Source: a virus
Lineage: Duplodnaviria; Caudoviricetes
Length of the DNA stretch: 64,000 nt
Reading direction: 5' to 3' (one strand)
Virus record (IMG/VR): IMGVR_UViG_3300037400_001189
Location: 1-64,000 of that record
Both the position numbers and the translations under genes were made by a program. Below the pieces are notes generated by a model. That model was not told where the DNA came from and searched no databases. It saw only the letters and a program-made list of their open reading frames with translations. Of the stretch, positions 6,001 to 44,544 are shown in pieces; positions within the stretch are counted from its first letter, which is position 1; each line of letters begins with the position of its first letter.

Positions 6001-9000
6001 GAACTTGGTTTCATTACGTCTACAAGAGTATACACTGGAGAATTTCCTACGGCTCCCAGTCCTACTGCTTCTCAGCAGGAAAAGGATGCTTTTCAAAGAG
6101 AAGTATCCAAGTACCTTAAAAGCCGTCATTTAGATGAATTGGACATTACGCCTGAACAGGCTGTTCATCTTGGCTTAGGCCAATCTAATGTAAGATATTT
6201 CTACAAGTACAATGAATCCCAAGAAACTGACAATGCAGTAAAAGAGCTATGGCTCGGTCCAGTAGTAGATACTGCTGATAAAGGTGAATATCTTGGAGAT
6301 TCTGCTCCTGTATACACTAGAGAAGAAAAGTTTGGTGCCAAGTCGTTTAAAGCAGGTAGAGATACCCTTACAAGAACTCCTTTGCTTAATGCTAAAGATG
6401 TTCATAACTCTCCTACTAGACGCAAGCAGCCTAACTTTAAACTTACTGAAAATAGGATGAGAGTATTAAATGAAGAAAGTAAAGCTCCTTACTATATCAA
6501 TACTCCTATTCTAGATGAGATTCTTAAAACATGCGATGGTAATGAAACTAAGATGAGAAAGCTTCTTCTCACTCGCATGGGATGGGATAGCAGAATTGAA
6601 GACGATGACTTTGATGATTTGTCTTATGATGAGAAGACCAAGATTAAAGGCAAGAATGAAAATCTTGAAAGAGAGCTTGATGCTTTCCTAGACTATGCTC
6701 GTCTGCAAAAAGACTTGGAGAGTGAAGGCAAGTTCTTTGGATACTTCTTTAGATACTTTGGTTCTGCCAACGGTCGTTCTTTCATGGATACCAATACCTT
6801 GAATCCTCAGACTTCCAAGGCATTTCCACGTTTCCTATGCCAGCCAGAAACTACCTATCAGGCATATGACCTAAATGATGCAAACGACATTCAATGTGAA
6901 TTGTTTGCTGTAGCTCAGGCATTTGACTGCCTTAAGTCCTATTACAGCTCTAAAGAGAATGAAAGCAGAAATGGCGTATCTCTTGCAGGCAAACTGCTTG
7001 GTCTAGATGTAGTTAATGGAGACATAGCTGATATACAAAAGAGACTAGAAACTCTTAGAGGCATTCAGAGAGATCTTATTCTTAACGATAGCGATACTAA
7101 TGCAGATAAGTATAGTAAAATTGGATGGAATGGTGGATTTGAAAACTTTGGTCAAGCAGTAGTAGCTATAGACCACTGCGTTAGAAGACTTGAAGCTGTT
7201 TTAGCTAAGGGTGGAAAAACTGAAGGAGCTACTATCAGCTCGTATCTTTCAGTAGAGAACGACTCTACTACATCCGGCTATGTAATTAAATTTTTACTTA
7301 TGCCTTTAGACAAGGATCTATTAGCTGAATATGGCTTGAAGATTGGTTATCTTAATCATGCTCTTATACAGAACAATCCTAACTTCTCAAGTGCTTTTAA
7401 GGAAAGAATTAAAGGCTATACTTCTATTGATCAGTTAAAGGCAGACCCAGAATTTTTGGATATCTATAAAACTGGTGCTGTTGAAATGGTCAATGAATAC
7501 GAAAGTATGAAGAGAGAAGCTGAGAAAAAACAGGAGACATTAGGTGAAGTAGCTTTTAATTCTTTATGCACTGTTGAATCTAATGATAAAGAAGATGATA
7601 CTAGAGAACTAAACAGTTTTGGAAAAAAGGTAGACAACGCAGGCATAGATGCAGTTGATGTAGATCGTGCCATTAAAACAGTAGAAGCAGCTATTCCTCA
7701 TCCAGAAAAAGATCCAAAAACTGGCTTATGGAAAGTTTCCAGTGTCTTAAGAAACTTGATGAAGCCTATTATTATGATTTTTGGCTACAATGCTTCAAAT
7801 GAATCTTGTGAAAAGAGATTCGGTGAAGCTGTTATGGATGAGCATATAAAGATTTTTGTCAATCTTTATAATAAGCAAGGTATTTATGGCTCTAAAGGAA
7901 AAGCTGTATTAGCTCCTATAGCTTATGATCTATATAAAGGTAAAAGAAGCAAGGAAGAAATTGATGCTATATTCAATTTCATGACTGACATAGCTCAAAG
8001 AGTTACAGGCTATAAAAATCAAAAGAGTGCCATAGATAAACTTGTAAAAGCTTTAAGAGCTAAATCTCCTTATGCCATTAAGTTTAAATCAATAGCTAGA
8101 GATCAGGTAGGAGTATATAATACCATATCAGTAGCTGAATGGTATAAGCTTGTAGTAGGTGGTACTTTTGGTAAAGCTGTAACCAAATTCTTGGACAAGA
8201 AATTTGGTGCATATGGCAAAGCTAATAGACATCTTAATAATGCTTCCAAGATTACGTTTAAGCTATATTCCCATGTGCGTAATGCTCTTATTAAGCAGCG
8301 TTTAGCTAAGCTTATTGAACAGGATGGCAATCCTGATGCTAGCGATGCAGCTAAGTCTCGCATTCAGTCTTTGAAAAAGAAATATGCATCTCAGGTAGCT
8401 AAAAATGGAAACAAGCTAAGTGTTAATTTCATGGGCATATCCGACTTAAAAACTAGGGAAGTAAGAGTTATAGACAATATATGCAGACCTCTTCTTCCAG
8501 TATTCCAGATGCCTGAAACTGATGCTGACAAAGTTAATCCTAAAACAGGTGCTGTAGTTAGCACCAATATTAGATCTGTTGATACTGCGTCTGCAGATCT
8601 AAGCAACTCTTCTGCAGCTACTCCTATCAAGTCTAGAGACATAGATGGCAACTCTATGCCTGAATACGTTCCTAGAAGCGATAATGAAGCTGATGGCTAC
8701 AAATTTGAAAACGATACTCTCAATTCATACGGTGACATAACAGAGTTTTCTTCTGGTGACCGTATGCTGGCAGTTCTGCTTATTCACTTCGTAGATGGCG
8801 TACTGGCAGAGCATACTATGGATCATATGCTTCAGTTAAAGAAGTATCTTACCGTTATCCATGATGCTTTTGTACTGTCTGCAAAAGATGGCAAGTTCCT
8901 TGACCAAGGCTTTAATGAAGCTCTTGCTAAAGTATGCGAGTATTTCAATCCATTTGAGATAGTTGCTATTGCTCTAAATCAAATGAAAAAAACTTCTCTT

Positions 9001-12000
9001 GAAATATGTGAAAAGAACGGTATTCCAGATTTTGACTTTAGAGCTCCTTTAAATCCAAAAAGATTTGGTTCAAAATTGTTTAATCCTACCTATGGTCAAG
9101 TGCAGCATGAAGTAATTGAACTTAGCAAGTTAGTGCGAAATATTAAAAGAGAGATTTTTAACAGCAATGATCAAATCATTCTTGCTAACTTAGGTGGTGA
9201 TACAGGAGGTCAATATACCATAGCTGGAACAGCTAAAGTACCCGGTGTAGGCAATGAAGTATCCACTCTTACTGCACAGGAAAAGGCTCAAGCTGAGTCT
9301 AGTGCTTTAGGTAGCAGAGCTTCTGCATGGAAGGATAAATATGACATTCAGAGAATAGAACAGGAAGCTAATTCCTCTAAGGAAGGAAGAGCCAAGATAT
9401 TCCAGTCTCTAAATGAATGGGATGAAGCTGAAGGTCCAGTAAAGAATGATGAAGAGTATCTGAAGCAGGCTCAGGAACTTCTTAATGAAATTAATCCTGA
9501 AAGGTTCACTAATCTTCAGTACGAAGAAGCTGTATCCCAGCAGGATGCTGAAGCTAAAGGCGTATACTTTACAGGCAGAGATGGAAGTCAGAGAAGAGTA
9601 ACTGTAATTAAGCCTACAGCTATTGCCAATGAAGCTGATAGGAAGAACAGGCTAGCTTCCAGACAGCTTTCCGCTGCAGCAGTGTACATGCATGAAATGA
9701 TTCACCCTGCTGTCAGTGAAGCTATAGCTAATCCTGATCTGTATGGCGTTACCAGAGAAGTAAGTGTTCTTAGAGAATTCTATAATGCTGTTGCTGACAA
9801 GATTGACTATACATTCTTCAGACCAGATAACTATGATTCTTTAACTGAAGCAGAGAAGAAGCTAGCTGATGAATCTGCTCAAAAGTACTATGACTACATG
9901 TTCAACAGTACTGACAAAGATACGTTAGGAGGCTTCCAAGAATTTATTGCCAATGCTCTTAGCGATCCTAGAATGATTAAGCTTCTAAAGGGCATGGATG
10001 CATCTGCCTATAGCGAGGAGTATAGAGGCAAGAACTTCTTTGAAAAGATATTCTACATAGTCAAGCATATTTTCAAGGCTATGTTTGGCAATGAAGAATC
10101 TAAAGGCAAGGTACTGCGTACTATGGGCACTCTTGGCTTGGAATCCAAGAGGCAAGGCTCTATCTATGATGCCATGAGAAATCTTACTGTGCAGATAAGC
10201 TATGCCAATGCCTATGCTGCCAACAAGATGCAGAACGGCAAGCTGTCCAAGCTTGAAAACGTATTTGAAGCTCTCAACTCTGCTGCTCAGGTAATCAAGC
10301 CTGTAAACGACTTTGTATCCGACAAAATTAAATGGGCATTCGACCTAGGCGGAGTATCCAACAGGTTTGAACGTACCTACAAGAGCTTGGAAGAGATTAT
10401 CAGAGCTCAAGGCATTACAGAAGGTTCCAGTAAAATGGATACTTTGAAGACTCTTCTGATGTGTCCATTCAGCCATAACATGAGAGTAGCCTTGGCAGAC
10501 ACTCTCATAGACTGCTGCTCTCTTGGACAGAGAAGCACCTTTGCACACTTTATCAGAGACATATCCGACAAGGATGACGCTACTAGACAGCTTGAAGGGC
10601 TAGCTTCTCTTAGAAACAACATAGACAGAATGTCCAGAGGTGCAGGAGCTGCATATGCTGCCAATATCCTAGATTCCTTTGGAGGAACCATATCTGACGA
10701 AGACTCCATAGCCTGCACCAAGATAGGCGTAGCATGCGATCTGCAGTCTCTTCTTACAAATGGATATTCCATTGAAGAGATACAGAAGCTGTCCAGCGGT
10801 GACGGCATAGAGGAAGCCATTGCTTCTCATGAAGCTGCCATTGCAAAGCATTACGAGAATGACAAGCATGGCAGAGAAAAGACTACATGGACTAGAAACC
10901 AGTGCATTGGTCTTGCCCACTTCATGAATACCAACAAAGGCAATCCTGCACAGTGCCTCAATGCCTATGCCATTGCCAGAGGCTTCCTCTGCACTTGGAA
11001 GAATGACAAGGCAGACGAGAAGCTTATAGGCCATATCGACTGCTTAACTTCTCTTATTGCCATGCAGAATGCTGATCCTAGCCATAGGCTAGCTATCTCC
11101 AAGATGAATTCAAAGGGATTGAAGACTGTACTGGAATGCCATAGAAGCCTTATAGGCAAGGCATTTGATGCAGGCTACATTGAAAGAGCTCACATGATTA
11201 AGGGATGGCATTCCTCTATCATAGACGATACCAAGGACTATGCAGTAGCTCCTGTAGATCCTGCTACAGTAAAAGCTATGGCTGACGATGGATACAAGCT
11301 CAATACAGAGCTTCCTGTAGACGGCATGACCAATGCTGTAATGGGATTCTACATCAAGAGTGTAACTACTCCACAGCATAGGCAAGGTGCAGCTCTTCAG
11401 ATTACAGGAAAGAGAGCTATAGGCCAGTCTCTTAACTCCTTCATGGAAAGCAACGAGCATATTATAGGAGACAGAAGAGACTACATTACAAGGCAGATAA
11501 AGAAGGCTCACTTCATTAGAACCAAGATGCAGGCTAGAATGGAAACTCTAGACGGTCTTAGCTATGAAGATTTCGACAATAGAGGACTAGTTGGTTCCTA
11601 CTATACTCCTGTAATTAGTCCTAATGGAGACGTAACAGACTTCCGCATTACCATGTTTAACGACTTCAAGGATGCAGTCATGAACAGAAACAACAATATC
11701 TGCGATGTCATGTCCAAGATGGCTATGACAAATACTGTCAAGACAAGTGCAGGAGGACAGAATACCAACATAGTTCATTTCCTTATAGACGACATGGAAA
11801 AGAACATGGATCCAGATACCCATAGAGCTAGGAGACAGTTTGAAAATCTTGGCGAAGTAGTGCTTGGAAGCAAGGAGCTTAGAAACAAGCATGACATCAA
11901 GTATGTAAGAGTAAGAATTGATCCTGACTCTGAATTTGCTGCTCCAGACGTTCCTGCTGCTATCATTCCAGAAGAAATGAGGGAAGCTATGAGAAGACTG

Positions 12001-13104
12001 GAGAAGAATGGAGACGGTCTATGGGTTAGGGAAGACTGGCTCTATCAGATATTTGGCACTCCTGACATTTCTCTTGCAGATGCCAAGGTAATGCAGAAGG
12101 AAAATATGAGAGCTGCCAAATTTGGCATTAGGCTAGCTGAAAACATTGCCAAGGCAGTAGCCACTCTTGCCAAGGTAGCTATCGTATTCAAGAAGCCTCA
12201 GGTACTAGTAGGCAATGCCGTATCCAACTATCTGTTCCATATAATGAATGGACATAATCCAGTTACTGCAGCTGCTATGGATACCGAGAATCTGCAGCTA
12301 GTAATCAAGTACATGCAGACGGAAAAGGAAATCAACAGACTGGATATCAAGAAGGACATTGGAGAAGCTACTGCATCAGAAAAGGCTAAGCTTAACAGGC
12401 TAAGATCTGCTCTGGAGAACAATCCTATTCACAAGCTAGTTCAGGCAGGACTCTTCTCTGCAGTTGTAGAAGACAACAGCAAGAAGGATCAGGATGCCAT
12501 GAAGGCTATGCTTAGATACATTAGCGACAATCCAAAGATGCAGAAAATAGCCAAGTCTGCTTTAGGCGATGCATTCGACATGAAGACTGTAAAAGGAAAG
12601 ATTGCAGGACAGCTCTACATGAGAGAAGGAACTCCTCTCTATGACTTCATCTATGCAATGACCCAGTATTCAGACTTTGTATCCAGATGTACCGACTACC
12701 GCATTGGAATGAAGCAGATGCCTGAATCGTTCAGAGGCAATGCCGACATGAAGAGAAAGTATGAGACTGCTCTTATTCAGCAGATAAGAGACGACTACAT
12801 CAACTACGATTCTCCTCAGTCCAAAGCTATGAACTACGTCAATGCAGTAGGCTTGACATTCTTTACAAAATACTTTTTCAGAATTCAGAGAGTAATACGC
12901 AGAACAACCACTAGACGGCCACTAATGGCATTTAGTATGATGGCTGCCAATGCTCATTTCGATACGCCTGACAACATATTTGAACAAATGCCACTAAGCA
13001 AAAACTATGGAGCCATATTCCATACTCCATGGGGCAATGCTGCTGACTTGGTATTTCCACCTGCATTTGGTGCATACAATCCAGCAAACTGGTGGCCTTT
13101 CTAG
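4..13104 (+). CDS. Virion-encapsidated RNA polymerase (N4 gp50-like) with extra N-terminal-half modules
   Basis: T7-type motifs: SANGR (DxxGR-like, ~6760), motif A ENDSTTSG (~7255), motif B RNLMKPIIMIFGY (Rx3Kx7Y, ~7750), HFVDG, motif C IHDAF (~8857). Giant size and late-strand position match N4. The frame is open at the window edge (CAT at 1-3), so the true start may lie upstream. Confidence 0.9.
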   Translation: MRTSLYDMISDMVATTAANGMLSEDLNNVLKQLQDSLGVENNEQLKKELARYAEVYGSAAVGDKEGKTDEVFSRRNLVSSDYYENANDVENRAQRFEDLIQNLGGTKAEARKLLEEVAEENINDKNEGFNSSLAKAKQAREEGNTDVYDSEVRHMTDRVKSMVMKMQDITEGLRSNMNKGATTDSKGFLSDDKFTIQYGNEKDSSRRGEKAQFRTSFKKEAFNYSTRGGLFKTTDQIASEARYMAEQLDSLNLSDKQKADIKQQLDLLQEYENDINHMGYELHRGIRRGFNYEADTDGEAVLSEGETAKIKGAMEDYFHQYVTPNTGEKRLSPKEAVDLKKYVNTLSLGQLKAFQKSLDKQKDSIAYEGVSAAIKARESAKGIAASHAKWRGTHYQNGKYIRSLVKTTQTTEKGNEAKIDNMVNGTHVDAINNANILEAHHEQLQQRIAKLEAKKNRTKREEKKLNELKAKLKSTKERLGTLERVSDARAKTIYNQNVKAILENPTKISELIAQVYNANKAQDAKVNVRAIEKAIKMLRDTLHDASSMETDKAKLKDAKKALELLDKLLKRAEKTDRVLEGRDTIIHKLIDICSKENLRNLSDINFLKALKQSMEKFKDKLGDRLEAYKGPYKEALYNLAYKIRLIERSDEKLARGIIYDINHNGDLDDLKSRAVDYEKKIAKLQARKSLSPEEQKTLDRYKQYSSAIAKQTKKLEDRANEFENKLPDRPDIFAINDIDELEDLDRTVVNSLAQLYDLKSEFYGNKLAIQKVMEVRKDIQAKIAELSEKQDASESPQNGSELTETGQDEQSTTDTQEGSQNGSEGSETVFEDDASVSKSLENLKTKYSTALGKAGLEKEQVNAVVEVLINNAKILADAFGMSVEDYLNTRFAGFQNMSQKEFEEKYSDVLYQDAWHGSPFDFNEFKTSAIGTGEGAQIHGWGLYFAASKDISEAYRKRLTNSVKVLYKGEDIANDADLFLTLSQIYNLINTNTIKDQDTLQTELAKELDILIKDEQEFFDAIKNDDDQSGSEFVDEKLKYLNDLKDNINEFKYVKNEDEKGQLFKVDIPENDVLLDEGLKLNKQPKKVIEAIKQIPPIKKIIDTNPYYLEQHTGRNLYDKLIDFFFEQTDTYKEIKEEYTGEKRRALRRKLYEARESQIGPLSKQASLLLNNYGIEGITYEGGRDGRCFVVFDDKAVKVLEKYYQRKRGQEAKGATTISANQSLITLFEKGDVSTALHETSHFFLNEVRELIKSGKAPKWMQSVWSTLQNQYSFDGLLDGTDNKSVKSWTRVQERFARDFEAYMREGKAPKPELQSIFDACKKWLKAIYKTIRSLLGKNKLSPEIRQAFDALFTGEFKGDENVAVESALETLNVWHATGENANLSNLALRPFDYEGRHYQSVEHAYQSLKSGSFDEAIYNDPRWSNAGTKIQGRKGTDKKTNLQLMKNLILESFKQNDSAREELLATGNAKFTHKRPNGSNGIWETEFPRILEEVREELKDYQPEIDNSDVYTLEQNLQQFLDTYQEIDESLLPEDIRNILTEISDRMDEVSKYANDPAISKYYGTLQKLYHDYEQLLKEAVANDNSSVSTTSTSTSIDVTLPELSSDPKEAAIEAQIQEVIKKYWNLDPDQPSGYFAKAIDEILDAYGLTAKLSAEKSSIYNELYIQLSDQYNTAFYEALDREAEAKRNKRDKIENTPRENETTEQLRKRLIVGGTEETDEADSEAEQERKYHQLHFPKHITSRWSQKALNGAFRDIKNIRNIFGAKESSMTLHGLPDSIIPDNWRDYQDDPESPLYRDAPLGKLVALAVDSLSKILVTYHFSKDTPLTRWDSKKKKYVPITELNGILNNVLRNAPHVQLLYQPDLSTMEIGRNYKGFKSSYIMDAMINPNTAVAIILGVAELFANRSVSSIFNPKTNEEIASAFGMNPDNIDPMDLQVFTKVANKYGVFKKNISTTLGHLIMDNLGLKRGNKLEEESYTIYDNSVAALGNVGLLLAEELGFITSTRVYTGEFPTAPSPTASQQEKDAFQREVSKYLKSRHLDELDITPEQAVHLGLGQSNVRYFYKYNESQETDNAVKELWLGPVVDTADKGEYLGDSAPVYTREEKFGAKSFKAGRDTLTRTPLLNAKDVHNSPTRRKQPNFKLTENRMRVLNEESKAPYYINTPILDEILKTCDGNETKMRKLLLTRMGWDSRIEDDDFDDLSYDEKTKIKGKNENLERELDAFLDYARLQKDLESEGKFFGYFFRYFGSANGRSFMDTNTLNPQTSKAFPRFLCQPETTYQAYDLNDANDIQCELFAVAQAFDCLKSYYSSKENESRNGVSLAGKLLGLDVVNGDIADIQKRLETLRGIQRDLILNDSDTNADKYSKIGWNGGFENFGQAVVAIDHCVRRLEAVLAKGGKTEGATISSYLSVENDSTTSGYVIKFLLMPLDKDLLAEYGLKIGYLNHALIQNNPNFSSAFKERIKGYTSIDQLKADPEFLDIYKTGAVEMVNEYESMKREAEKKQETLGEVAFNSLCTVESNDKEDDTRELNSFGKKVDNAGIDAVDVDRAIKTVEAAIPHPEKDPKTGLWKVSSVLRNLMKPIIMIFGYNASNESCEKRFGEAVMDEHIKIFVNLYNKQGIYGSKGKAVLAPIAYDLYKGKRSKEEIDAIFNFMTDIAQRVTGYKNQKSAIDKLVKALRAKSPYAIKFKSIARDQVGVYNTISVAEWYKLVVGGTFGKAVTKFLDKKFGAYGKANRHLNNASKITFKLYSHVRNALIKQRLAKLIEQDGNPDASDAAKSRIQSLKKKYASQVAKNGNKLSVNFMGISDLKTREVRVIDNICRPLLPVFQMPETDADKVNPKTGAVVSTNIRSVDTASADLSNSSAATPIKSRDIDGNSMPEYVPRSDNEADGYKFENDTLNSYGDITEFSSGDRMLAVLLIHFVDGVLAEHTMDHMLQLKKYLTVIHDAFVLSAKDGKFLDQGFNEALAKVCEYFNPFEIVAIALNQMKKTSLEICEKNGIPDFDFRAPLNPKRFGSKLFNPTYGQVQHEVIELSKLVRNIKREIFNSNDQIILANLGGDTGGQYTIAGTAKVPGVGNEVSTLTAQEKAQAESSALGSRASAWKDKYDIQRIEQEANSSKEGRAKIFQSLNEWDEAEGPVKNDEEYLKQAQELLNEINPERFTNLQYEEAVSQQDAEAKGVYFTGRDGSQRRVTVIKPTAIANEADRKNRLASRQLSAAAVYMHEMIHPAVSEAIANPDLYGVTREVSVLREFYNAVADKIDYTFFRPDNYDSLTEAEKKLADESAQKYYDYMFNSTDKDTLGGFQEFIANALSDPRMIKLLKGMDASAYSEEYRGKNFFEKIFYIVKHIFKAMFGNEESKGKVLRTMGTLGLESKRQGSIYDAMRNLTVQISYANAYAANKMQNGKLSKLENVFEALNSAAQVIKPVNDFVSDKIKWAFDLGGVSNRFERTYKSLEEIIRAQGITEGSSKMDTLKTLLMCPFSHNMRVALADTLIDCCSLGQRSTFAHFIRDISDKDDATRQLEGLASLRNNIDRMSRGAGAAYAANILDSFGGTISDEDSIACTKIGVACDLQSLLTNGYSIEEIQKLSSGDGIEEAIASHEAAIAKHYENDKHGREKTTWTRNQCIGLAHFMNTNKGNPAQCLNAYAIARGFLCTWKNDKADEKLIGHIDCLTSLIAMQNADPSHRLAISKMNSKGLKTVLECHRSLIGKAFDAGYIERAHMIKGWHSSIIDDTKDYAVAPVDPATVKAMADDGYKLNTELPVDGMTNAVMGFYIKSVTTPQHRQGAALQITGKRAIGQSLNSFMESNEHIIGDRRDYITRQIKKAHFIRTKMQARMETLDGLSYEDFDNRGLVGSYYTPVISPNGDVTDFRITMFNDFKDAVMNRNNNICDVMSKMAMTNTVKTSAGGQNTNIVHFLIDDMEKNMDPDTHRARRQFENLGEVVLGSKELRNKHDIKYVRVRIDPDSEFAAPDVPAAIIPEEMREAMRRLEKNGDGLWVREDWLYQIFGTPDISLADAKVMQKENMRAAKFGIRLAENIAKAVATLAKVAIVFKKPQVLVGNAVSNYLFHIMNGHNPVTAAAMDTENLQLVIKYMQTEKEINRLDIKKDIGEATASEKAKLNRLRSALENNPIHKLVQAGLFSAVVEDNSKKDQDAMKAMLRYISDNPKMQKIAKSALGDAFDMKTVKGKIAGQLYMREGTPLYDFIYAMTQYSDFVSRCTDYRIGMKQMPESFRGNADMKRKYETALIQQIRDDYINYDSPQSKAMNYVNAVGLTFFTKYFFRIQRVIRRTTTRRPLMAFSMMAANAHFDTPDNIFEQMPLSKNYGAIFHTPWGNAADLVFPPAFGAYNPANWWPF

Positions 13105-37595: not shown

Positions 37596-37719
37596 TTAAT
37601 AGCCTCCTATAGGGGTATTTGACATAGTGTCACTATAGGGAAAATAGGGTTCAAAAAGAGATTTGTCATATAGGTTGACAGATTTTTTTACAAGATTATT
37701 TCTGAATAGAAAGCTGTAC

Positions 37720-37757
37720 AAAAAATAAGGGAGAGACTCCGAAGAGTCCCTCCCTTT
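37720..37757 (-). terminator. Terminator after the RNA polymerase gene
   Basis: Hairpin with a UUCG loop on the - strand, followed by a U tract. Confidence 0.8.
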
Positions 37758-37769
37758 GTAATTTTCCTG

Positions 37770-39494
37770 CTATTTCATGGCTGTGCCAAAGAACTGAGGC
37801 ACTTCCTCTCTGTTAACGTCACGGATAGTCTTGGTGTTGCCTATGCTGTCCATGAAGTTTCTGAGAATGGAATGCCTGTCCTTGTATATCTCGTAGAGCT
37901 TGGACGTATAGAGAATTCTGACTCTATGAGCATCGTTTGGATGAACTATGGCAGCATCATGATTGCATAGAATCCAGTTCATGTTAGCTCCTATATAGTT
38001 CATCACCTGAGAATCAAGATTGTGGACTAGCAGAGTGCAGTGGTATCTGACAAACTGCTTAACGTCTACAACCCTATCAGCTCTAGCGTACGGCTTATAA
38101 TAGCCGTTAGTAGTAGTATATATCTTGACATGCTGCTTTTCCTCTGAATCCTTGAATTTGGAGCAGTTTACAGTGAATTCCTCGTTCCATATCTTCACTT
38201 TCCTAGTCTCTGCAGGAACGCACTTGAGAATGGTATCCTTGAAGAGATTGGGAGCAAAGAATCTTCCTCCTCTCTCGAAATCCTTCTCTATGTTCTCCTC
38301 GTCTTCCTGAGTATACTCAAGATGGTGACGATCCCATAGATCTGCAGGAGAGGCAGAAGAACCATAGATTCTAGGAGTTACTGCAAACTTGACATACTTC
38401 CGAGGAAGATAGTCTACAGTCCAGTAGTCTTCTAGAACATACGGATTTATCAAGTTAGTAAGATTCATGAGATTATGGTCGTTCATGAGAACACCCATAA
38501 TCTGGACAGCAGATGCAGTAGCATCTACCTCGATAGGCACTGTCCAGTGGTCAGTGTCTTCCAGATTCTCATAGATTCTCTTGAGCCATATCTGTTCGTG
38601 AAGGTCTGCAGATTCAGGGATTTCCCTGTTCTCTGCATGAAGCTTTCCAAGCTCTATCTTCTCCTTGAGAGTTCTAGGCTTGTCTCCGAATATCTCTGCT
38701 ATAAAGAGATATACGTTCTTCAGTCCAGCAGTGGTAAGCTTCTGGACAGGACACTTCACGATAGATCTGGCTACCTTATGAGAGATGGGATTGAACACTC
38801 TATGAACGCAGTCGAATATAGCTCTTCCACGGGAATCGGAAGTGCATTCGCCTAATACATAGCGTTCATCCTTGGATGCTCCCGTATAGAGCAGAAGAGA
38901 TTCAACTATTTCGGAATATGTAGGCTTCTCTCCTTCATATCCTTCTTGAGGCTTCTGATAGTCTGCATAGACTTCCTTAGCCATCTCTTCAAGATATTCC
39001 TTGACGTACTTTACGTCATACTTGAAGGGACAGGAGCCAGACTTGGCAAAGCCAAGACGCTTGAGACCTACGTCTCTAGTAACCTTGGCTCCATGACTGT
39101 TCACAGTCCTAGTCCTGTTCCAGTGCCTAGGGAGCTTGGAAGACATCATAGTCTTTCTTATCTTGAACTCTCTAATCACTGAATTAAGCTCTTCTTCGCT
39201 TACCCACTTGAGAAGCTTTTCATAGTTGAGTTCAATGGTTCCAAACTTGCCTACAGTCTTGACCAGTATCCAGCCCGTAACGCCCAAGATCATGAAGATC
39301 TTGTTAAGATGCTTGGAATCTATGCGTTCAATCCAAGCATTGAGACTCATGGTCTTTCCATGGAAGAACTTCACAACCATGCGGTTCCAAAGTTCCTCTA
39401 TGTCTCTCTTTTCATCTTCATTTACATGAATGTATTCCCACAGCTTTGCAGGAATGTTCACGATTCCTTGAAGAATCTCTTCACGTCTAGCCAT
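37770..39494 (-). CDS. T7-superfamily RNA polymerase (N4 RNAPII equivalent) in one polypeptide
   Basis: DSRGR, motif A EVDATASAVQ, motif B RKYVKFAVTPRIYG, HNLDS, motif C NHDA. Confidence 0.9.
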   Translation of the reverse strand: MARREEILQGIVNIPAKLWEYIHVNEDEKRDIEELWNRMVVKFFHGKTMSLNAWIERIDSKHLNKIFMILGVTGWILVKTVGKFGTIELNYEKLLKWVSEEELNSVIREFKIRKTMMSSKLPRHWNRTRTVNSHGAKVTRDVGLKRLGFAKSGSCPFKYDVKYVKEYLEEMAKEVYADYQKPQEGYEGEKPTYSEIVESLLLYTGASKDERYVLGECTSDSRGRAIFDCVHRVFNPISHKVARSIVKCPVQKLTTAGLKNVYLFIAEIFGDKPRTLKEKIELGKLHAENREIPESADLHEQIWLKRIYENLEDTDHWTVPIEVDATASAVQIMGVLMNDHNLMNLTNLINPYVLEDYWTVDYLPRKYVKFAVTPRIYGSSASPADLWDRHHLEYTQEDEENIEKDFERGGRFFAPNLFKDTILKCVPAETRKVKIWNEEFTVNCSKFKDSEEKQHVKIYTTTNGYYKPYARADRVVDVKQFVRYHCTLLVHNLDSQVMNYIGANMNWILCNHDAAIVHPNDAHRVRILYTSKLYEIYKDRHSILRNFMDSIGNTKTIRDVNREEVPQFFGTAMK

Positions 39495-39577: not shown

Positions 39578-40105
39578 CTAATCAAAGCTCTCGCGAAGAG
39601 CCTGACGGATGTCCTCGTCAGACTCCTCTTCATCGTTTTCCAGAAGCTCACGCTTCTTTTCGACAAAGGCTTCCCAGTTCTCGTCAGTGATGTCGGCAAA
39701 GTCTTCATCGCTGTAGGACAGGCTGTAGCCATCGCAGAATGCCTTGACGATTTCAATCGTCTTGGCACAGTCGCGCTTCTTGCCTTCCACCATAGTGCCA
39801 TCGGCACTGATGAAGGGAGCAACGCCACAATACTTCCTGTACATGTCGATAAAGACAGGAGGAAGGCCAATGGCCTTGTGCACCGGAGACTTGGCATTGC
39901 GAGAGTTCACGCATTGCTTGATCATGCCAAGGACAAACTGGCAGAGTTCGTTCTGGGTGCTATAGTCAACCCAGACCTGAGAGACCTTGCGACCGAGACA
40001 AGAAAGAGCCTGAGAGCGAAGCTCGTCCATGATTGCAGCATTCTTTTCAGAAGTGGCAATAGCGGCAGAGAAGGCACCAGAGATACGGGAAGAATCGAAC
40101 GACAT
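39578..40105 (-). CDS. Early protein with an acidic C-terminus; candidate RNAPII cofactor (N4 gp2-like role)
   Basis: Own promoter hairpin, SD and terminator; biased codon use; sits directly upstream of the RNAP. Function is inferred from position only. Confidence 0.7.
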   Translation of the reverse strand: MSFDSSRISGAFSAAIATSEKNAAIMDELRSQALSCLGRKVSQVWVDYSTQNELCQFVLGMIKQCVNSRNAKSPVHKAIGLPPVFIDMYRKYCGVAPFISADGTMVEGKKRDCAKTIEIVKAFCDGYSLSYSDEDFADITDENWEAFVEKKRELLENDEEESDEDIRQALRESFD

Positions 40106-40139: not shown

Positions 40140-40153
40140 AGGACTAGTGTCCT
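40140..40153 (-). promoter_or_regulatory. Putative vRNAP hairpin promoter
   Basis: aggac-TAGT-gtcct on the template (+) strand. Confidence 0.7.
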
Positions 40154-40155
40154 CT

Positions 40156-40207
40156 AAATAAAAAAAGAAAAGGGTGGAACACGAACCATGAAGTTCATGT
40201 CCACCCT
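40156..40207 (-). terminator. Early terminator
   Basis: agggtgga...ccaccct stem plus long U tract. Confidence 0.75.
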
Positions 40208-40214
40208 AGTCTCT

Positions 40215-40457
40215 TTAGAGGAGAGCCCTAAGGCTCTCTACTGCCTTGGGATCTACAGCAGCCAGCTTCTCGCTGGCATCCTTGGCAATCTCACAGGAGA
40301 GAGCCTTTGCCTGACCTCGAAGCGAGGTTGTAACATCTGACACAGTGTCAATGGAATCAGACATCACATTGAGACACTTTTCGTAAGTGTTAGGAGAAAC
40401 CTTTTTAAGAATGAGAGCACCAAGACCAAGACCGATAACTGTACGAATCATAACCAT
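40215..40457 (-). CDS. Early protein, paralogue of 43800-44096
   Basis: N-terminal hydrophobic helix; RGQxKA...A.D...L.AV.P.A.E.LRALL shared. Confidence 0.8.
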   Translation of the reverse strand: MVMIRTVIGLGLGALILKKVSPNTYEKCLNVMSDSIDTVSDVTTSLRGQAKALSCEIAKDASEKLAAVDPKAVESLRALL

Positions 40458-40480
40458 ACTCCTTGAATTAAAGATAATTT

Positions 40481-40492
40481 GCGCTAGTGCGC
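40481..40492 (-). promoter_or_regulatory. Putative vRNAP hairpin promoter
   Basis: gcgc-TAGT-gcgc. Confidence 0.6.
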
Positions 40493-40615
40493 TATCTAAA
40501 AAAAGAAAAGGAATAGGAAGGAATCTAGACGGTAGGCCGCAAGGAAGAGAATTGAAGAGAGAGTTGGAGGAAGATAATAGGCTGGGACGGTGCAGACGTG
40601 TATAAAGTGTATTTC

Positions 40616-40650
40616 AAAAAACAAGGAGAGACCTTTCGGTCCCTCCTTGT
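40616..40650 (-). terminator. Early terminator
   Basis: acaaggag...ctccttgt stem plus U tract. Confidence 0.8.
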
Positions 40651-40663
40651 CTTCTGCACCTCC

Positions 40664-40960
40664 TTATGCAGCAATGTGAAGACGGATATAGTCAGCTAGC
40701 CATTGAGGCAGCATTGTCGTATCTCCATATCTCTTGCCATAGCCACCCTTGTAGACGGATATGAGAGGAAGATACGGATATACTAGTGCCACACGGACAG
40801 CTCCCATAGTCTTGAAGACTACGAGAAGACGTTCCTTGCCAGATTGGCTAATATCCTTGCCAATCACTGTCACTTCCTTGAAGGAAGTGTTCCCTTCAAA
40901 CATGAAGGAAACGATGCGCTGGTAAGGATCGCAGAGATGGAAACGGGAAGAAATTCTCAT
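40664..40960 (-). CDS. Early hypothetical protein (98 aa)
   Basis: Start trimmed to the ATG after AAGGAGG. Confidence 0.7.
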   Translation of the reverse strand: MRISSRFHLCDPYQRIVSFMFEGNTSFKEVTVIGKDISQSGKERLLVVFKTMGAVRVALVYPYLPLISVYKGGYGKRYGDTTMLPQWLADYIRLHIAA

Positions 40961-40971
40961 GGCAACCTCCT

Positions 40972-41193
40972 TTAGTTTAGCCACTCAATTTCGGAACTGA
41001 ATTCATGCGTACCTTGGTGCATATGCACGATGTAGGAAGGATAGCCTTCACATTCCACCAAGGCATTGAAGTAATGGCTATTGCTGTTCTGGTCATCTTC
41101 TTCAACAGTATCCTTCTGGATGTAGCTAAGAAGAGAACGGTCAGAACGAATGGCACGATGCATGATTTCGAGATAATCAGAATCAGAATACAT
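40972..41193 (-). CDS. Early hypothetical protein (73 aa, acidic)
   Basis: Start trimmed to the ATG after AGGAGG. Confidence 0.7.
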   Translation of the reverse strand: MYSDSDYLEIMHRAIRSDRSLLSYIQKDTVEEDDQNSNSHYFNALVECEGYPSYIVHMHQGTHEFSSEIEWLN

Positions 41194-41221
41194 AGCAGTA
41201 CCTCCTAATGGATTGCTATCT

Positions 41222-41268
41222 AAAAAAAGAAAAAGATGGAACACTGCTCTAGACAGCATTTCATCCTT
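41222..41268 (-). terminator. Early terminator
   Basis: Imperfect gatggaa...tttcatc stem plus U tract. Confidence 0.65.
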
Positions 41269-41276
41269 TCTCTCTC

Positions 41277-41639
41277 CTAAAGCTCCACTATATTCATGTT
41301 AAACCTAACATTCATATAGTCAGCTAGCAATCTTCTATGGCAGAACTTGCCACTTGCTTCCCAGCATAACAATAGCACATTCTGCCTACGTTCCTTAGCA
41401 ATTAGCCTTTCAGCTAAATACTTTAAAGTATTATCCTTATCCAAAAGGATATTTAAATACTTTCTAGTATATTCATTGCTATCGCCTGTAGCCTTATATC
41501 TAGTCAGCATCTCCCATGTAGGAGCCAGCCAAGTCAACTGGCAATCTGGCTTAAAATAGCTAGGAACAGTACGGCTAATGGCAATCCTGAACGTATCAGG
41601 ATACTTTACTGCCTTGGCATAGTAACTAGTGCAAATCAT
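41277..41639 (-). CDS. DUF488-family protein
   Basis: ICTSYY...IAISR...LAPTWEML...LLCWE...FCHRRLLA; start trimmed to the SD-supported ATG. Confidence 0.75.
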   Translation of the reverse strand: MICTSYYAKAVKYPDTFRIAISRTVPSYFKPDCQLTWLAPTWEMLTRYKATGDSNEYTRKYLNILLDKDNTLKYLAERLIAKERRQNVLLLCWEASGKFCHRRLLADYMNVRFNMNIVEL

Positions 41640-41670
41640 ATCTACCTCCTTAGGCATAATTACCCTAGTT

Positions 41671-41716
41671 AAAAAAAGAAAAAATAAAGGAGCCTAGGAT
41701 TTCTCCTAGACTCCTT
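41671..41716 (-). terminator. Early terminator
   Basis: aaggag-ctagga/tcctag-ctcctt stem plus U tract. Confidence 0.8.
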
Positions 41717-41723
41717 CATCTAT

Positions 41724-42008
41724 TTAGTCCTCGAAGTAGTGGTATTCCGCATCGTCAATAGCCTTTTGAGCTATTTCAGACCATGTGTGAATCTTATAGT
41801 TGCATTCGAAAGCCCACTGAATAGCGTTATACGACTCCTCTTCAGAGAGGTAGAACTTATAGCTCTGCTGAGAGTAGTCGTACCACCTCACCACGATCTC
41901 CAGATATTCTGGATACTCGTAGATATCCAGATCCATGACCTGTGCATGCTCGTCTGCATCCTGAAGGGACATGAGAATGCTCTTGAAATTGTGGTAGCTA
42001 ATCGACAT
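41724..42008 (-). CDS. Early acidic, Tyr-rich protein
   Basis: Own cassette; AAGGAG SD. Confidence 0.75.
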   Translation of the reverse strand: MSISYHNFKSILMSLQDADEHAQVMDLDIYEYPEYLEIVVRWYDYSQQSYKFYLSEEESYNAIQWAFECNYKIHTWSEIAQKAIDDAEYHYFED

Positions 42009-42036
42009 GGCTAATCTCCTTGGATTTAGATTGTCA

Positions 42037-42050
42037 GAGGCTAATGCCTC
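42037..42050 (-). promoter_or_regulatory. Putative vRNAP hairpin promoter
   Basis: gaggc-TAAT-gcctc. Confidence 0.7.
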
Positions 42051-42052
42051 CT

Positions 42053-42085
42053 AAATAAAAAAATAAAGGGAGCCGTTAGGCTCCC
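42053..42085 (-). terminator. Early terminator
   Basis: gggagcc-gtta-ggctccc plus U tract. Confidence 0.8.
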
Positions 42086-42092
42086 AGTATTG

Positions 42093-42242
42093 CTAAGACT
42101 GATAGGGCATAGGCCCAATGGATTCTCCCATGTCTTCCTCTGTACCATTAGGCATAAAGGATTCCATCATTTCCATTTCTTCTTCTCTCTGAATGAGCAT
42201 TTCAATCTGCTCTTCAGACAGGCTGTCAATAGTGCATCCCAT
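42093..42242 (-). CDS. Small acidic early protein (49 aa, MGCTIDSLSEEQ...)
   Basis: Translated by hand; AAGGAG SD. Confidence 0.6.
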   Translation of the reverse strand: MGCTIDSLSEEQIEMLIQREEEMEMMESFMPNGTEEDMGESIGPMPYQS

Positions 42243-42262
42243 TGCTAGTCTCCTTGAATTTT

Positions 42263-42285
42263 AAAGGAGGAGCCGAAGCTCCTCC
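42263..42285 (-). terminator. Hairpin with a short U run (weak terminator)
   Basis: ggaggagc-cgaa-gctcctcc. Confidence 0.6.
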
Positions 42286-42292
42286 CATTCTG

Positions 42293-42475
42293 CTAGAAGT
42301 CAGGACAGTAGTCTTCGTAGTTGTACAAAGCACTATCACCGAATGAAGAATCTATATCTTCATACAGATCTCCATTCATAATTGCCTCTATAGCTCTCTT
42401 TGAGTTCTCTTCAACAGTGAGTTCATCGCTGTAGTCGAGTTCAAAGCCAAGTGCCATAAGAGTAGCAGTATCCAT
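42293..42475 (-). CDS. Small, highly acidic early protein
   Basis: AGGAGG SD; rich in D/E/Y. Confidence 0.75.
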   Translation of the reverse strand: MDTATLMALGFELDYSDELTVEENSKRAIEAIMNGDLYEDIDSSFGDSALYNYEDYCPDF

Positions 42476-42500
42476 AATTTCCTCCTAGGGATTTAAGGAC

Positions 42501-42516
42501 TAGGCATAATTGCCTA
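42501..42516 (-). promoter_or_regulatory. Putative vRNAP hairpin promoter
   Basis: taggca-TAAT-tgccta. Confidence 0.75.
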
Positions 42517-42519
42517 TAT

Positions 42520-42552
42520 AATAAAAGAAAAAGGAGGAGCGTTAGCTCCTCC
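42520..42552 (-). terminator. Early terminator
   Basis: ggaggagc-gtta-gctcctcc plus U tract. Confidence 0.8.
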
Positions 42553-42561
42553 AATTCTTCT

Positions 42562-42864
42562 TTAGCTGTTTTCTATCTGCCTCATTCTCTTTTCGAGAAT
42601 AGATGCAGCTTCTAGAACAGCTCTTGCTGCTGAATCAGTCATTTCTCCCTGTTTTTCAATTAAAGAGAAATACATCTCTTCAATTTCAAAGTAGGAGAGA
42701 ACCTTATGGTACTTTCTGTACCATAAAGATTCTTCTTCAGTATTCTGTTCTCCATTCCATTCATGATCTAATGAATAGATGGAGACTTCATAAGCAAGAT
42801 TCTGGATTTCTGGATTTTCAGATACTCCTGAAATCATGCTTGCGATTCTGAATACTTCTGTCAT
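42562..42864 (-). CDS. Early hypothetical protein
   Basis: Own cassette; AGGAGG SD. Confidence 0.75.
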   Translation of the reverse strand: MTEVFRIASMISGVSENPEIQNLAYEVSIYSLDHEWNGEQNTEEESLWYRKYHKVLSYFEIEEMYFSLIEKQGEMTDSAARAVLEAASILEKRMRQIENS

Positions 42865-42890
42865 TTTCTAATCCTCCTTTGGATTGATAA

Positions 42891-42904
42891 AGGCATAACT
42901 GCCT
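42891..42904 (-). promoter_or_regulatory. Putative vRNAP hairpin promoter
   Basis: aggca-TAAC-tgcct. Confidence 0.7.
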
Positions 42905-43131
42905 GCATAATAAAATAAATACTTGACATTGGGACTAGGGAAGACATAGGTATGGAATGTCAGGAAAATGACAGGGAAATTTGAGTAGTGATGTACTCAT
43001 GTACTACTGTACATATATCTTATACATGAGAATGATGTGCCAATGCACTTAGTACTTAAGTGCTAGTAATAGTGCTAGTAAAGTACTAGTGGAAGTGTCT
43101 AATGTGTATAACATGTGTCTAACCTCTCGAC

Positions 43132-43168
43132 AAAAAATAAGGAGGCAGGAGCCTAAGCTCCCACCTCC
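43132..43168 (-). terminator. Early terminator
   Basis: ggagg-ca-ggagc-ctaa-gctcc-ca-cctcc plus U tract. Confidence 0.8.
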
Positions 43169-43173
43169 AGATA

Positions 43174-43410
43174 CTACAGCAAACCGTAGTCGCCTTCGAG
43201 GACATCCTCGATTGAACGACAAGTCTTCTTGTCCCTACGGCGCATAGCCGTATCGAATTCAGCTTCCGAGTAGTTGGTGTGCAGGATATCCACAGTCCTC
43301 TCCTGCCAGTAGGCGAAGATGGACCACATGTGGATCTGATCGTCCCTGTTCATAAGAGCAAGGTCAATATTCCTGTAACCGTAGTACTCGAACATATCGT
43401 TGATAGACAT
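43174..43410 (-). CDS. Early hypothetical protein
   Basis: Own cassette; AGGAGG SD. Confidence 0.75.
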   Translation of the reverse strand: MSINDMFEYYGYRNIDLALMNRDDQIHMWSIFAYWQERTVDILHTNYSEAEFDTAMRRRDKKTCRSIEDVLEGDYGLL

Positions 43411-43436
43411 AACAGCCTCCTATGGCTTTAATTGTC

Positions 43437-43452
43437 AGGACATAATTGTCCT
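43437..43452 (-). promoter_or_regulatory. Putative vRNAP hairpin promoter
   Basis: aggaca-TAAT-tgtcct. Confidence 0.75.
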
Positions 43453-43456
43453 ATCT

Positions 43457-43498
43457 AAAAAAAGAAAAGGTCCACACCTCCGAAGAGATGCAGACCTT
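43457..43498 (-). terminator. Early terminator
   Basis: aaggtc...ctc-cgaa-gag...gacctt plus U tract. Confidence 0.75.
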
Positions 43499-43506
43499 GT
43501 TGATGT

Positions 43507-43731
43507 TTAGAAGGGAAGCTCCATGACTTCTAAGCCATAGAACTGGAGCACAATAACCTGAGATGCAGTGCCTTGGAAGCACCAGTCACCGTCTTCACGG
43601 TCCCAGAGCTTCCAGCCACAGCGATACTGCAGGTTGGAGTACCGAATGTTCCTGCCTTGTGACAGCGTAGCCATGACCTCATCCATAAGGTCACGGTCGT
43701 TACATTCGAAGTAAACGAACTCTTCGCTCAT
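43507..43731 (-). CDS. Early hypothetical protein (74 aa)
   Basis: Start trimmed to the ATG after AAGGAGG. Confidence 0.7.
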   Translation of the reverse strand: MSEEFVYFECNDRDLMDEVMATLSQGRNIRYSNLQYRCGWKLWDREDGDWCFQGTASQVIVLQFYGLEVMELPF

Positions 43732-43748
43732 GTTGTCCTCCTTTGGAC

Positions 43749-43785
43749 AAAAACTGACCTGCATCCCCGAAGGGACACAGGTCAG
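43749..43785 (-). terminator. Early terminator
   Basis: ctgacctg...tccc-cgaa-ggga...caggtcag plus U tract. Confidence 0.8.
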
Positions 43786-43799
43786 GAAGGGAGCAACGG

Positions 43800-44096
43800 T
43801 TACGGACGGCGAACTGCACGGCGAGATGCAGGACGCACAGGCTGCTGAGGCTGCTGTCCATCGAGCAGAGCACGGAGCTCTTCGATAGCAGCAGGGTTCA
43901 CTGCCTGCAGACGCTGGGTAGCATCCGCAGCAGCCTCGGAAGTGTAAGCCTTCACCTGACCACGGACAGCCGTGGTGAGGTCAGCAGCGGAGTCGATGAT
44001 GTCGGTAGCAGCCTGCACTGCCTGCTCGTATGCACGAGGGCAAGCACGCTTTGCGACAAAGCCAGCGACAGCGAGACCGATGATGGTCTTAAACAT
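43800..44096 (-). CDS. First early gene; Ala-rich protein with an N-terminal hydrophobic helix
   Basis: AGGAGG SD; GC-rich, biased codons; paralogue of 40215-40457. Confidence 0.8.
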   Translation of the reverse strand: MFKTIIGLAVAGFVAKRACPRAYEQAVQAATDIIDSAADLTTAVRGQVKAYTSEAAADATQRLQAVNPAAIEELRALLDGQQPQQPVRPASRRAVRRP

Positions 44097-44123
44097 GGTA
44101 TACCTCCTACGGTATATTTTGTT

Positions 44124-44139
44124 GCAGCATAATTGCTGC
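44124..44139 (-). promoter_or_regulatory. Putative vRNAP hairpin promoter (first)
   Basis: gcagca-TAAT-tgctgc. Confidence 0.75.
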
Positions 44140-44193
44140 TATTTAACAAAAGAAAGGAGCGAAGCGACCAGATACATTTCCCCTGTGGCAGGA

Positions 44194-44307
44194 GCACAGG
44201 ACAGCATAGCACACACCTACCCCCACCCCCTATGGCACAGGGACAGCATGGCACAGCAGGGACAGCAGGCAGGAGAGAGCACAGTGCAGCACAGCACAGG
44301 TGCACAG
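44194..44307. repeat. GCACAG short-repeat cluster in the probable genome terminus region
   Basis: Seven GCACAG copies (44194, 44235, 44251, 44279, 44289, 44294, 44302) plus GACAG variants. Confidence 0.8.
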
Positions 44308-44544
44308 GCAGCACACAGTACCGCAGGCTCGATAAGGGGCTCCACAGCACACGACACCGGGGGGAGTCTTCGATTTCTTGAGCTCGGTGGCGCAGTGCTA
44401 CCTCCATAAAAAATTATTAAAATTTCAAGTATAATTTTGACCAGTATGCTATGGAGATTTATATGGAACAGAACAGATGGTTTTTCTTTATATGGCTTTG
44501 GAACTTGATTAAGAAGGTTAATAAATTATTAGGAGGACACTAGT

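Follow-up and report, generated by a model that had tools for sequence, protein, structure and literature searches.

T-rich boxes joined to four-nucleotide-loop hairpins: probable early start signals in a phage with a very divergent N4-type virion RNA polymerase

How does a virion RNA polymerase (vRNAP) of the N4 type find its early promoters on DNA that it cannot melt? To our knowledge, the hairpin promoters of such injected polymerases have been experimentally mapped in only two phages, both with a 3-nt loop and a fixed start. The question is raised anew by a locus in the IMG/VR virus record IMGVR_UViG_3300037400_001189 (Duplodnaviria; Caudoviricetes), of which the window analysed here comprises bases 1–64000 of a 75,006-bp contig (GC 40%) whose end repeats its start. 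Between 39578 and 44100 the window carries a block of small minus-strand genes with strong ribosome-binding sites (RBS), immediately upstream of a gene for a fused polymerase resembling N4 RNAPII, the second phage polymerase. As this gene lies directly downstream, the block is assigned as the early region, and its position is the same as that of the N4 early region. The window also codes for rIIA, a primase and the large terminase. The original prediction had described in this block a family of hairpins with four-nucleotide loops, interpreted as a structure-specific class of vRNAP promoters. Here, the hairpins are found to be one part of a composite cassette that occurs nine times, and they very likely form part of early start signals.

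Each cassette consists of an 18-nt T-rich box directly 5' of a short hairpin, whose stem has the last G of the box at its foot (Table 1). On the coding strand the box has the consensus TTTTCTTTTTTTANNTAG; it ends in TAG and is 94% A+T. The hairpin, with a stem of 4–6 bp, is present in eight of the nine cassettes. All seven perfect hairpins of the original prediction, with loops reading TAAT, TAGT or TAAC on the plus strand, were recovered, and the degenerate copy that had been placed at 41651–41667 proved real but is located at 41653–41664, with a wobble or mismatch in its 4-bp stem. The adjacent T-box and the hairpin-less box at 41216–41233 had not been part of that prediction. In six of eight copies the loop lies 32–35 nt from the ATG. 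In cassette 6 the RBS begins 2 nt past the stem, and the true start codon of its gene is likely 41639–41637 rather than the ATG at 41657, inside the hairpin, that was chosen by the open reading frame (ORF) caller. Similarly, the called start at 41259 lies upstream of the box of cassette 7; for both genes the ATG backed by an RBS (41639–41637 and 41193–41191) is in the same frame as the called one. Folded as RNA, the hairpins have predicted energies between -4.1 and -9.3 kcal/mol; the DNA values range from -3.8 to -6.6 kcal/mol on the template strand and from -4.0 to -7.0 kcal/mol on the coding strand (degenerate copy left out), with no strand asymmetry. Three early genes (43507–43764, 42093–42242 and 40664–40984) have no cassette and must thus be expressed by read-through.

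Table 1 Coordinates of the nine cassettes and of the two polymerase genes in the window
Feature	Coordinates	Strand	Description
Cassette 1, T-box	44139..44156	-	Most degenerate box, 3 mismatches; no upstream terminator; first after the presumed genome end
Cassette 1, hairpin	44124..44139	-	6-bp stem, sense loop ATTA; before 98-aa early gene 43800-44096
Cassette 2, T-box	43451..43468	-	Perfect consensus; also T-tail of terminator 43467-43498
Cassette 2, hairpin	43437..43452	-	6-bp stem, loop ATTA; before gene 43174-43410
Cassette 3	42891..42925	-	Degenerate T-rich stretch without TAG; before gene 42562-42864
Cassette 3, hairpin	42891-42904	-	5-bp stem, loop GTTA; compensatory stem change and TAG present in the L024 ortholog
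Cassette 4	42501..42531	-	T-box 42514-42531 behind terminator 42533-42552; before gene 42293-42475
Cassette 4, hairpin	42501-42516	-	6-bp stem, loop ATTA
Cassette 5	42037..42068	-	T-box 42051-42068 behind terminator 42068-42085; before gene 41724-42008
Cassette 5, hairpin	42037-42050	-	5-bp stem, loop ATTA
Cassette 6	41653..41682	-	T-box 41665-41682 and imperfect 4-bp hairpin 41653-41664
Cassette 7	41216..41233	-	Perfect T-box without hairpin; RBS 12 nt on, ATG 41193-41191
Cassette 8	40481..40509	-	Perfect T-box 40492-40509, no adjoining terminator hairpin; before gene 40215-40457
Cassette 8, hairpin	40481-40492	-	4-bp stem, loop ACTA
Cassette 9	40140..40171	-	T-box 40154-40171; before gene 39578-40105, the last ahead of the second phage polymerase
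Cassette 9, hairpin	40140-40153	-	5-bp stem, loop ACTA
Virion RNA polymerase	4..13104	+	4366 aa; phrog_2206, E 5.5e-105
Fused N4 RNAPII-type polymerase	37770..39494	-	574 aa; adjoins the cassette-bearing block, downstream

The restriction of the hairpins to the early region was confirmed. Seven hairpins of this loop type occur in the region, compared to 0.65 ± 0.81 in 300 dinucleotide shuffles (maximum 4), and a scan of the 75-kb genome for this loop on this strand with a stem of at least 5 bp placed six of its ten hits inside these 4 kb. Allowing up to 3 mismatches, the T-box gave eight matches in 40154–44156, all on the minus strand, where 1.35 are expected in the window; the ninth box-like element is the degenerate T-rich stretch ahead of the hairpin at 42891. 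Of all words repeated in the genome, 11-mers derived from the box rank in the top three, with five copies each, and the genome holds no other repeated motif suited to an early promoter. A combined scan of the 75 kb, on both strands, for a T-rich box followed by any hairpin with a 3–6-nt loop and an RBS recovered only the seven perfect-stem cassettes plus three weak AT-only matches; neither the middle nor the late region contains a cassette. A scan for sigma-70 promoters revealed no enrichment, no match on the cassettes and no -35/-10 pattern, and Rfam returned nothing at its gathering score. Both gene direction and GC skew flip near 44400, where the genome probably ends. As the early block has no other repeated signal, and as the cassettes are absent elsewhere, precede most early genes including the first after the genome end, and are unlike host promoters, they are very probably early start signals, all promoter readings taken together.

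The conservation of the cassettes was followed in an alignment of 24 copies from three related genomes, namely that of the window and the partial genomes L024 (the same contig as L001, L057 and L200; RNAPII 94% identical) and L056, which carry the same cassettes at the same place and belong with it to a small uncultured N4-like clade. A fourth record, G001 (vRNAP 53% identical), breaks right after the second cassette, before any RNAPII gene, and features only the first two cassettes. Over the 24 copies the T-box has 12 invariant columns, the final A and G among them, and G follows TA in 24/24. Among the loop columns one is invariant and one is 90% conserved. The loops read, on the coding strand, ATTA (14 copies), ACTA (5), GTTA (2), GCTA, TCTA and ATCA (1 each), closed by A:T or C:G. 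Thus, the three loop sequences of the original prediction describe the window correctly, while with the relatives included the rule becomes T-A-R-N on the template strand, which holds in 23/24. The stems, previously described as varying freely, rather covary around a G/C-rich consensus: 91.7% of stem cells are paired against 57.8% in shuffles (0/500 as high) and 23–42% in slid controls, and all six stem pairs change on both sides. Compensatory double changes at orthologous sites were found for the hairpins at 42891, 41653 and 40140 when compared to positions 6585, 7528 and 9345 of L024, respectively. The hairpin structure and the loop are, as judged from this alignment, both under selection. 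The sites in L024 and L056 that match cassette 7 do possess a hairpin; cassette 6 and its two orthologs have the RBS only 1–2 nt past the stem, which compensatory changes nevertheless maintain. The distance from TAG to the loop ranges from 3 to 5 nt and tracks stem length, with 0–1 unpaired bases at the stem foot; hence, it is the stem foot, not the loop, that sets the position of the box. The flanks of the box at 40492–40509 differ among the three genomes. As a negative control, 31 loci in which ATTA follows the box at the correct distance were collected from IMG/VR; stems were present only in the known clade, apart from one chance 4-bp AT-only stem, and two IMG/VR scans with the box alone gave only single, apparently random matches. 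Counting G-T against A-C mismatches, as a means of distinguishing an RNA or coding-strand hairpin from a template-strand hairpin, gave one event each way inside the stem, to which G001 adds one outermost G-T on the coding strand.

The T-box overlaps with transcription terminators in part of the cassettes. GC-rich terminator stems directly precede five of the nine boxes, so the earlier statement that most hairpins sit just after the previous gene's terminator applies to this subset, and four boxes are without a called terminator stem. Where such a stem is present the box is its T-tail, and termination and re-initiation signals overlap. No called terminator stem adjoins the boxes at 44139, 41216 and 40492 (at 40492–40509 none is visible by eye either), and the conservation of these three is therefore not explained by termination alone. 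The cassette hairpins themselves do not look like intrinsic terminators, as the T-tract precedes the small hairpins instead of following them; moreover, the box has fixed non-T positions. Two further possibilities were discarded: the upstream GC-rich stems are not the real promoter hairpins, since four boxes lack them, and rightward (antisense) transcription from the hairpins does not agree with the orientation of the genes and ribosome-binding sites, every one of which faces left. An observation on mobility concerns the terminator at 43754–43785, which in the window is followed directly by a gene and in three relatives, L024 and L056 among them, by a cassette and a different gene; judging from this comparison, hairpin, leader and gene seem to be exchanged together, the T-run containing the junction.

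The enzyme expected to read early promoters is encoded at the start of the window. The 4366-aa virion polymerase contains a polymerase domain of the N4 mini-vRNAP type (approx. aa 1700–3100), in agreement with the original prediction, albeit similarity to N4 is remote. BLASTP against N4 gp50 gave only an 88-aa C-terminal match (E 1e-5), phmmer searches of the PDB with the whole protein and with the polymerase part gave no match, and jackhmmer did not reach N4 gp50. Only hhalign did: a profile of 37 homologs aligned with N4 mini-vRNAP over ~1020–1045 columns with a probability of 96.5–98.7% and 17% identity. The N4 residues D559, R666, K670, Y678 and D951 correspond to D2420, R2583, K2587, Y2595 and D2954 at high alignment confidence, and across the polymerase family these five catalytic positions show little or no variation. 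Conversely, K114, R119, W129, D901 and R904, with which N4 vRNAP reads its hairpin, align to D, K, L, G and M, where hhalign confidence is 0–2/9; this is suggestive of hairpin contacts that are not recognisably kept. Thus, the enzyme is of the N4 type, yet nothing in these comparisons links it to the N4 loop code.

For direct comparison the N4 promoters P1–P3 were re-read from the N4 genome. They show a 3-nt loop, stems of 5–7 bp and an invariant G ten bases past the loop (11 nt from the loop centre), and have no conserved upstream flank; this geometry agrees with the literature (PMC4496689). In LUZ7, early starts mapped by ONT-cappable-seq are at a G 13–14 nt from the hairpin centre (PMC9163698). 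The cassettes share with both phages the short inverted repeats with 4–7 bp stems and a conserved loop, and the presence of several copies solely in the early DNA that precedes the RNAPII genes; the giant virion polymerases are homologous and agree in their catalytic residues. They differ in having a loop of 4 nt (T-A-R-N on the template) as compared to 3 nt (5'-G-R-A-3' on the template, closed by C:G), and in lacking a conserved start base at a fixed distance. Moreover, there are nine copies instead of the three of N4, the polymerase domain is only 17% identical, and the invariant 18-nt T-rich box ending in TAG has no counterpart in N4. A loop-anchored profile of the 24 copies revealed no conserved base past the stem and no preference for G, the best column being A in 18/24 at the seventh nucleotide after the loop. 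The start that had been anticipated 10–12 nt beyond the loop is therefore not supported by the sequence, in contrast to the invariant G of P1–P3. Of the proposed structure-specific promoter with a four-nucleotide loop, covariation and a strand-specific loop stand, while an N4-like geometry finds no support in the sequence, and the strongest conservation resides in the T-box.

On this basis we favour, with a probability of roughly 0.45, a reading in which the cassettes are early promoters of the virion polymerase with the T-box as their core, transcription starting at the invariant G and the hairpin being transcribed first. The T-box would be the promoter proper, as its length and the near-identity of its copies are those of a promoter for a single-subunit polymerase and its TA|G end is that of the T7 group, and transcription would begin at or beside its G. 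Each early mRNA would thereby receive a 5'-terminal stem-loop, preceded by 0–1 unpaired bases and placed ~12–25 nt before the RBS. The displaced coding strand could fold into the same hairpin and help to keep the bubble open. As the loop is conserved strand-specifically, a second factor, or the polymerase itself, presumably reads the loop as well. Where a GC-rich terminator lies upstream, the box would serve both as its T-tail and as the re-initiation signal. This reading is preferred because it explains the invariant TA|G and the fixed position of the box relative to the stem foot, as well as the RBS that abuts the hairpin in cassette 6 and the hairpin-less cassette 7, which retains its box and a gene with an RBS. 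The 12 invariant box columns, compared to a single invariant loop column, likewise count in its favour, as does a distant relative with an early box of its own (see below).

Promoters of the T7 group are conserved linear elements of ~17–23 bp, repeated ahead of transcription units, that end in TA followed by G, and late transcripts of T7 start with a 5' stem-loop. The cassettes resemble them in possessing a linear conserved element of ~17–18 bp in many near-identical copies with the same ending, a stem-loop that begins at or beside that G, and a polymerase of the single-subunit superfamily. Still, there is no similarity to the T7, T3 or SP6 consensus, since the box is nearly pure T and only the terminal TA|G is common; furthermore, the loop of the cassette hairpin is conserved, unlike in the T7 group. 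A comparable layout was found in L028, a 113-kb contig with an RNAPII that is 37% identical. Its locus at 4913–8178 has an early box composed of a T-run and a 10-nt word ending in TTGG, and the 5 kb ahead of RNAPII contain six copies of it on the gene strand; the whole locus gives 8 matches where 2.2 would be expected. Three of these copies lead straight into a hairpin that begins at GG and whose loop, of 5–8 nt, is not conserved. Among 31 loci of distant relatives (RNAPII 29–40% identical), loop counts and hairpin scans showed no shared family of NYTA loops; other relatives display lineage-specific repeated motifs, or a T-run with a small hairpin, and no common loop. By this comparison the early motif seems to differ from lineage to lineage.

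Several points weigh against a start at the box. Every mapped vRNAP promoter, i.e. those of N4 and LUZ7 (PMC9163698), has its hairpin upstream of the start. For N4 vRNAP, double-stranded DNA is not a usable template (PMC4496689), and a linear box offers no obvious means of opening the duplex. While the stems change freely, 23/24 copies agree in the last two loop bases (sense strand), and a hairpin that merely stabilises mRNA would not need such constancy. Moreover, the box is of low complexity and is a terminator tail in 5/9 cassettes, so that termination may account for part of its conservation. About half of the copies show a C-A step around the tenth nucleotide past the loop, as would fit an N4-like start on A. 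Lastly, the promoter function, the polymerase that uses it and the start site are all deduced from sequence comparison. Accepting the start at the box nonetheless, it can be proposed, more tentatively, that a lineage of N4-type vRNAP gave up the upstream hairpin promoter to read a linear T-box and start at the foot of a cruciform-forming repeat. In such an inverted N4 geometry, the conserved hairpin with its 4-nt loop would lie downstream of the start and act on the displaced strand or in the nascent RNA.

The same elements can also be arranged as an N4-style promoter, where supercoiling would extrude the repeat, the vRNAP would bind the template-strand hairpin with its T-A-R-N loop, and transcription would start ~10 nt downstream. 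We consider this the less likely of the two, despite the precedent in N4 and LUZ7, the N4-type polymerase and a location like that of P1–P3 upstream of RNAPII. Strong stem covariation (91.7% against 57.8% paired), strand-specific loop conservation and the loop-to-ATG distance of 32–35 nt in 6/8 copies would all suit it. The T-box could then be an accessory, either an AT-rich flank that would ease extrusion or a poly-T landing pad on the non-template strand, through which the host single-stranded DNA-binding protein (SSB), with its preference for poly-dT, could selectively melt the hairpin of that strand. However, without a conserved start base at a fixed loop distance, unlike in N4, the start would have to be flexible and unconserved, and in cassette 6 and its orthologs a start at such a distance would fall inside the RBS. 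Such a promoter neither predicts the invariant TAG nor accounts for a box more conserved than the hairpin; in N4 itself the upstream flank of the promoters is not conserved. Cassette 7 retains the box without a hairpin, and the energies of the DNA hairpins are modest (-3.8 to -6.6 kcal/mol) and alike on both strands.

An explanation without local promoters, in which one or two upstream starts and leaky terminators supply the whole block, appears improbable. Here, the T-boxes would be termination or pause signals, and the small hairpins RNA processing sites, stability elements or binding sites of a translational regulator ahead of each cistron. The GC-rich terminator stems directly before five of nine boxes, the need for read-through into the three cassette-less genes, the stability of the hairpins as RNA (-4.1 to -9.3 kcal/mol) and the roughly constant spacing from hairpin to RBS are in line with this. 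Yet the first cassette (44124–44156) has no upstream gene to terminate, the boxes at 40492 and 41216 have no called terminator alongside, and a terminator tail requires neither a fixed C nor an invariant TTA-NN-TAG; furthermore, the genome would be left with no other repeated motif able to serve as an early promoter. That the boxes are instead promoters of the second phage polymerase or of the host polymerase is more improbable still. N4 RNAPII does use a minimal AT-rich promoter (-7 to +2), to which a box with 94% A+T could be likened. However, the cassettes occur only upstream of the RNAPII gene and not in the middle or late regions, RNAPII needs to be transcribed before it exists, and a host promoter is not apparent either, given the missing -35/-10 pattern and the lack of sigma-70-like enrichment. 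A start at the invariant G of the T-box thus remains the reading we prefer.

Hairpin early promoters of N4-like phages are known; what is new here is that a highly divergent vRNAP lineage combines a 4-nt loop with an invariant T-rich box. No paper describing such a cassette was found in the N4-like literature searched. Mapped starts would show either that a re-coded 4-nt loop is tolerated in hairpin recognition, or that this lineage has come to read a linear box that precedes its hairpin. In both cases it would become clear how N4-type polymerases find promoters on DNA they cannot melt, and a second, probably orthogonal, polymerase/promoter pair would be at hand for transcribing supercoiled or single-stranded DNA. 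With promoter boxes that double as terminator tails, this early region would neatly exemplify one-gene transcription units in a phage.

Some observations were made in the surroundings of the cassettes. Directly upstream of the first one, a GC-rich (56–60%) non-coding stretch at 44160–44450 (7340–7540 in L176) holds repeated CTGTGC-like words and a C6 run, and gene direction and GC skew switch here; it is probably the physical genome end. The stretch is kept in G001, and C-runs stand at the equivalent place in L035, L039 and L040. A non-coding gap of ~235 nt (42905–43140) separates the terminator at 43141–43168 from cassette 3 and is rich in short repeated words with ACTAG and GTAC. The early proteins encoded at 43800–44096 and 40215–40457 on the minus strand (98 and 80 aa) are paralogs with 45% identity (E 1e-27), and each of their genes has one cassette. 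Across the whole block, blastn against the GenBank phage collection gave zero nucleotide matches. Between G001 (L173–L176) and the window, identity amounts to 98% for the primase, 82% for the terminase, 67% for rIIA and 53% for the virion polymerase, which points to strong mosaicism. Downstream of the early region, a spacer at 37600–37727 on the minus strand (core 37623–37637) leads from the RNAPII terminator to the first middle gene. It contains a short T-run followed by TATAG, which opens a near-palindrome and is single-copy in the window. The 10-nt core matches the core of the SP6 promoter. Both L024 and L056 retain the element, apart from a single change to its palindrome, and it is possibly a middle promoter or an operator.

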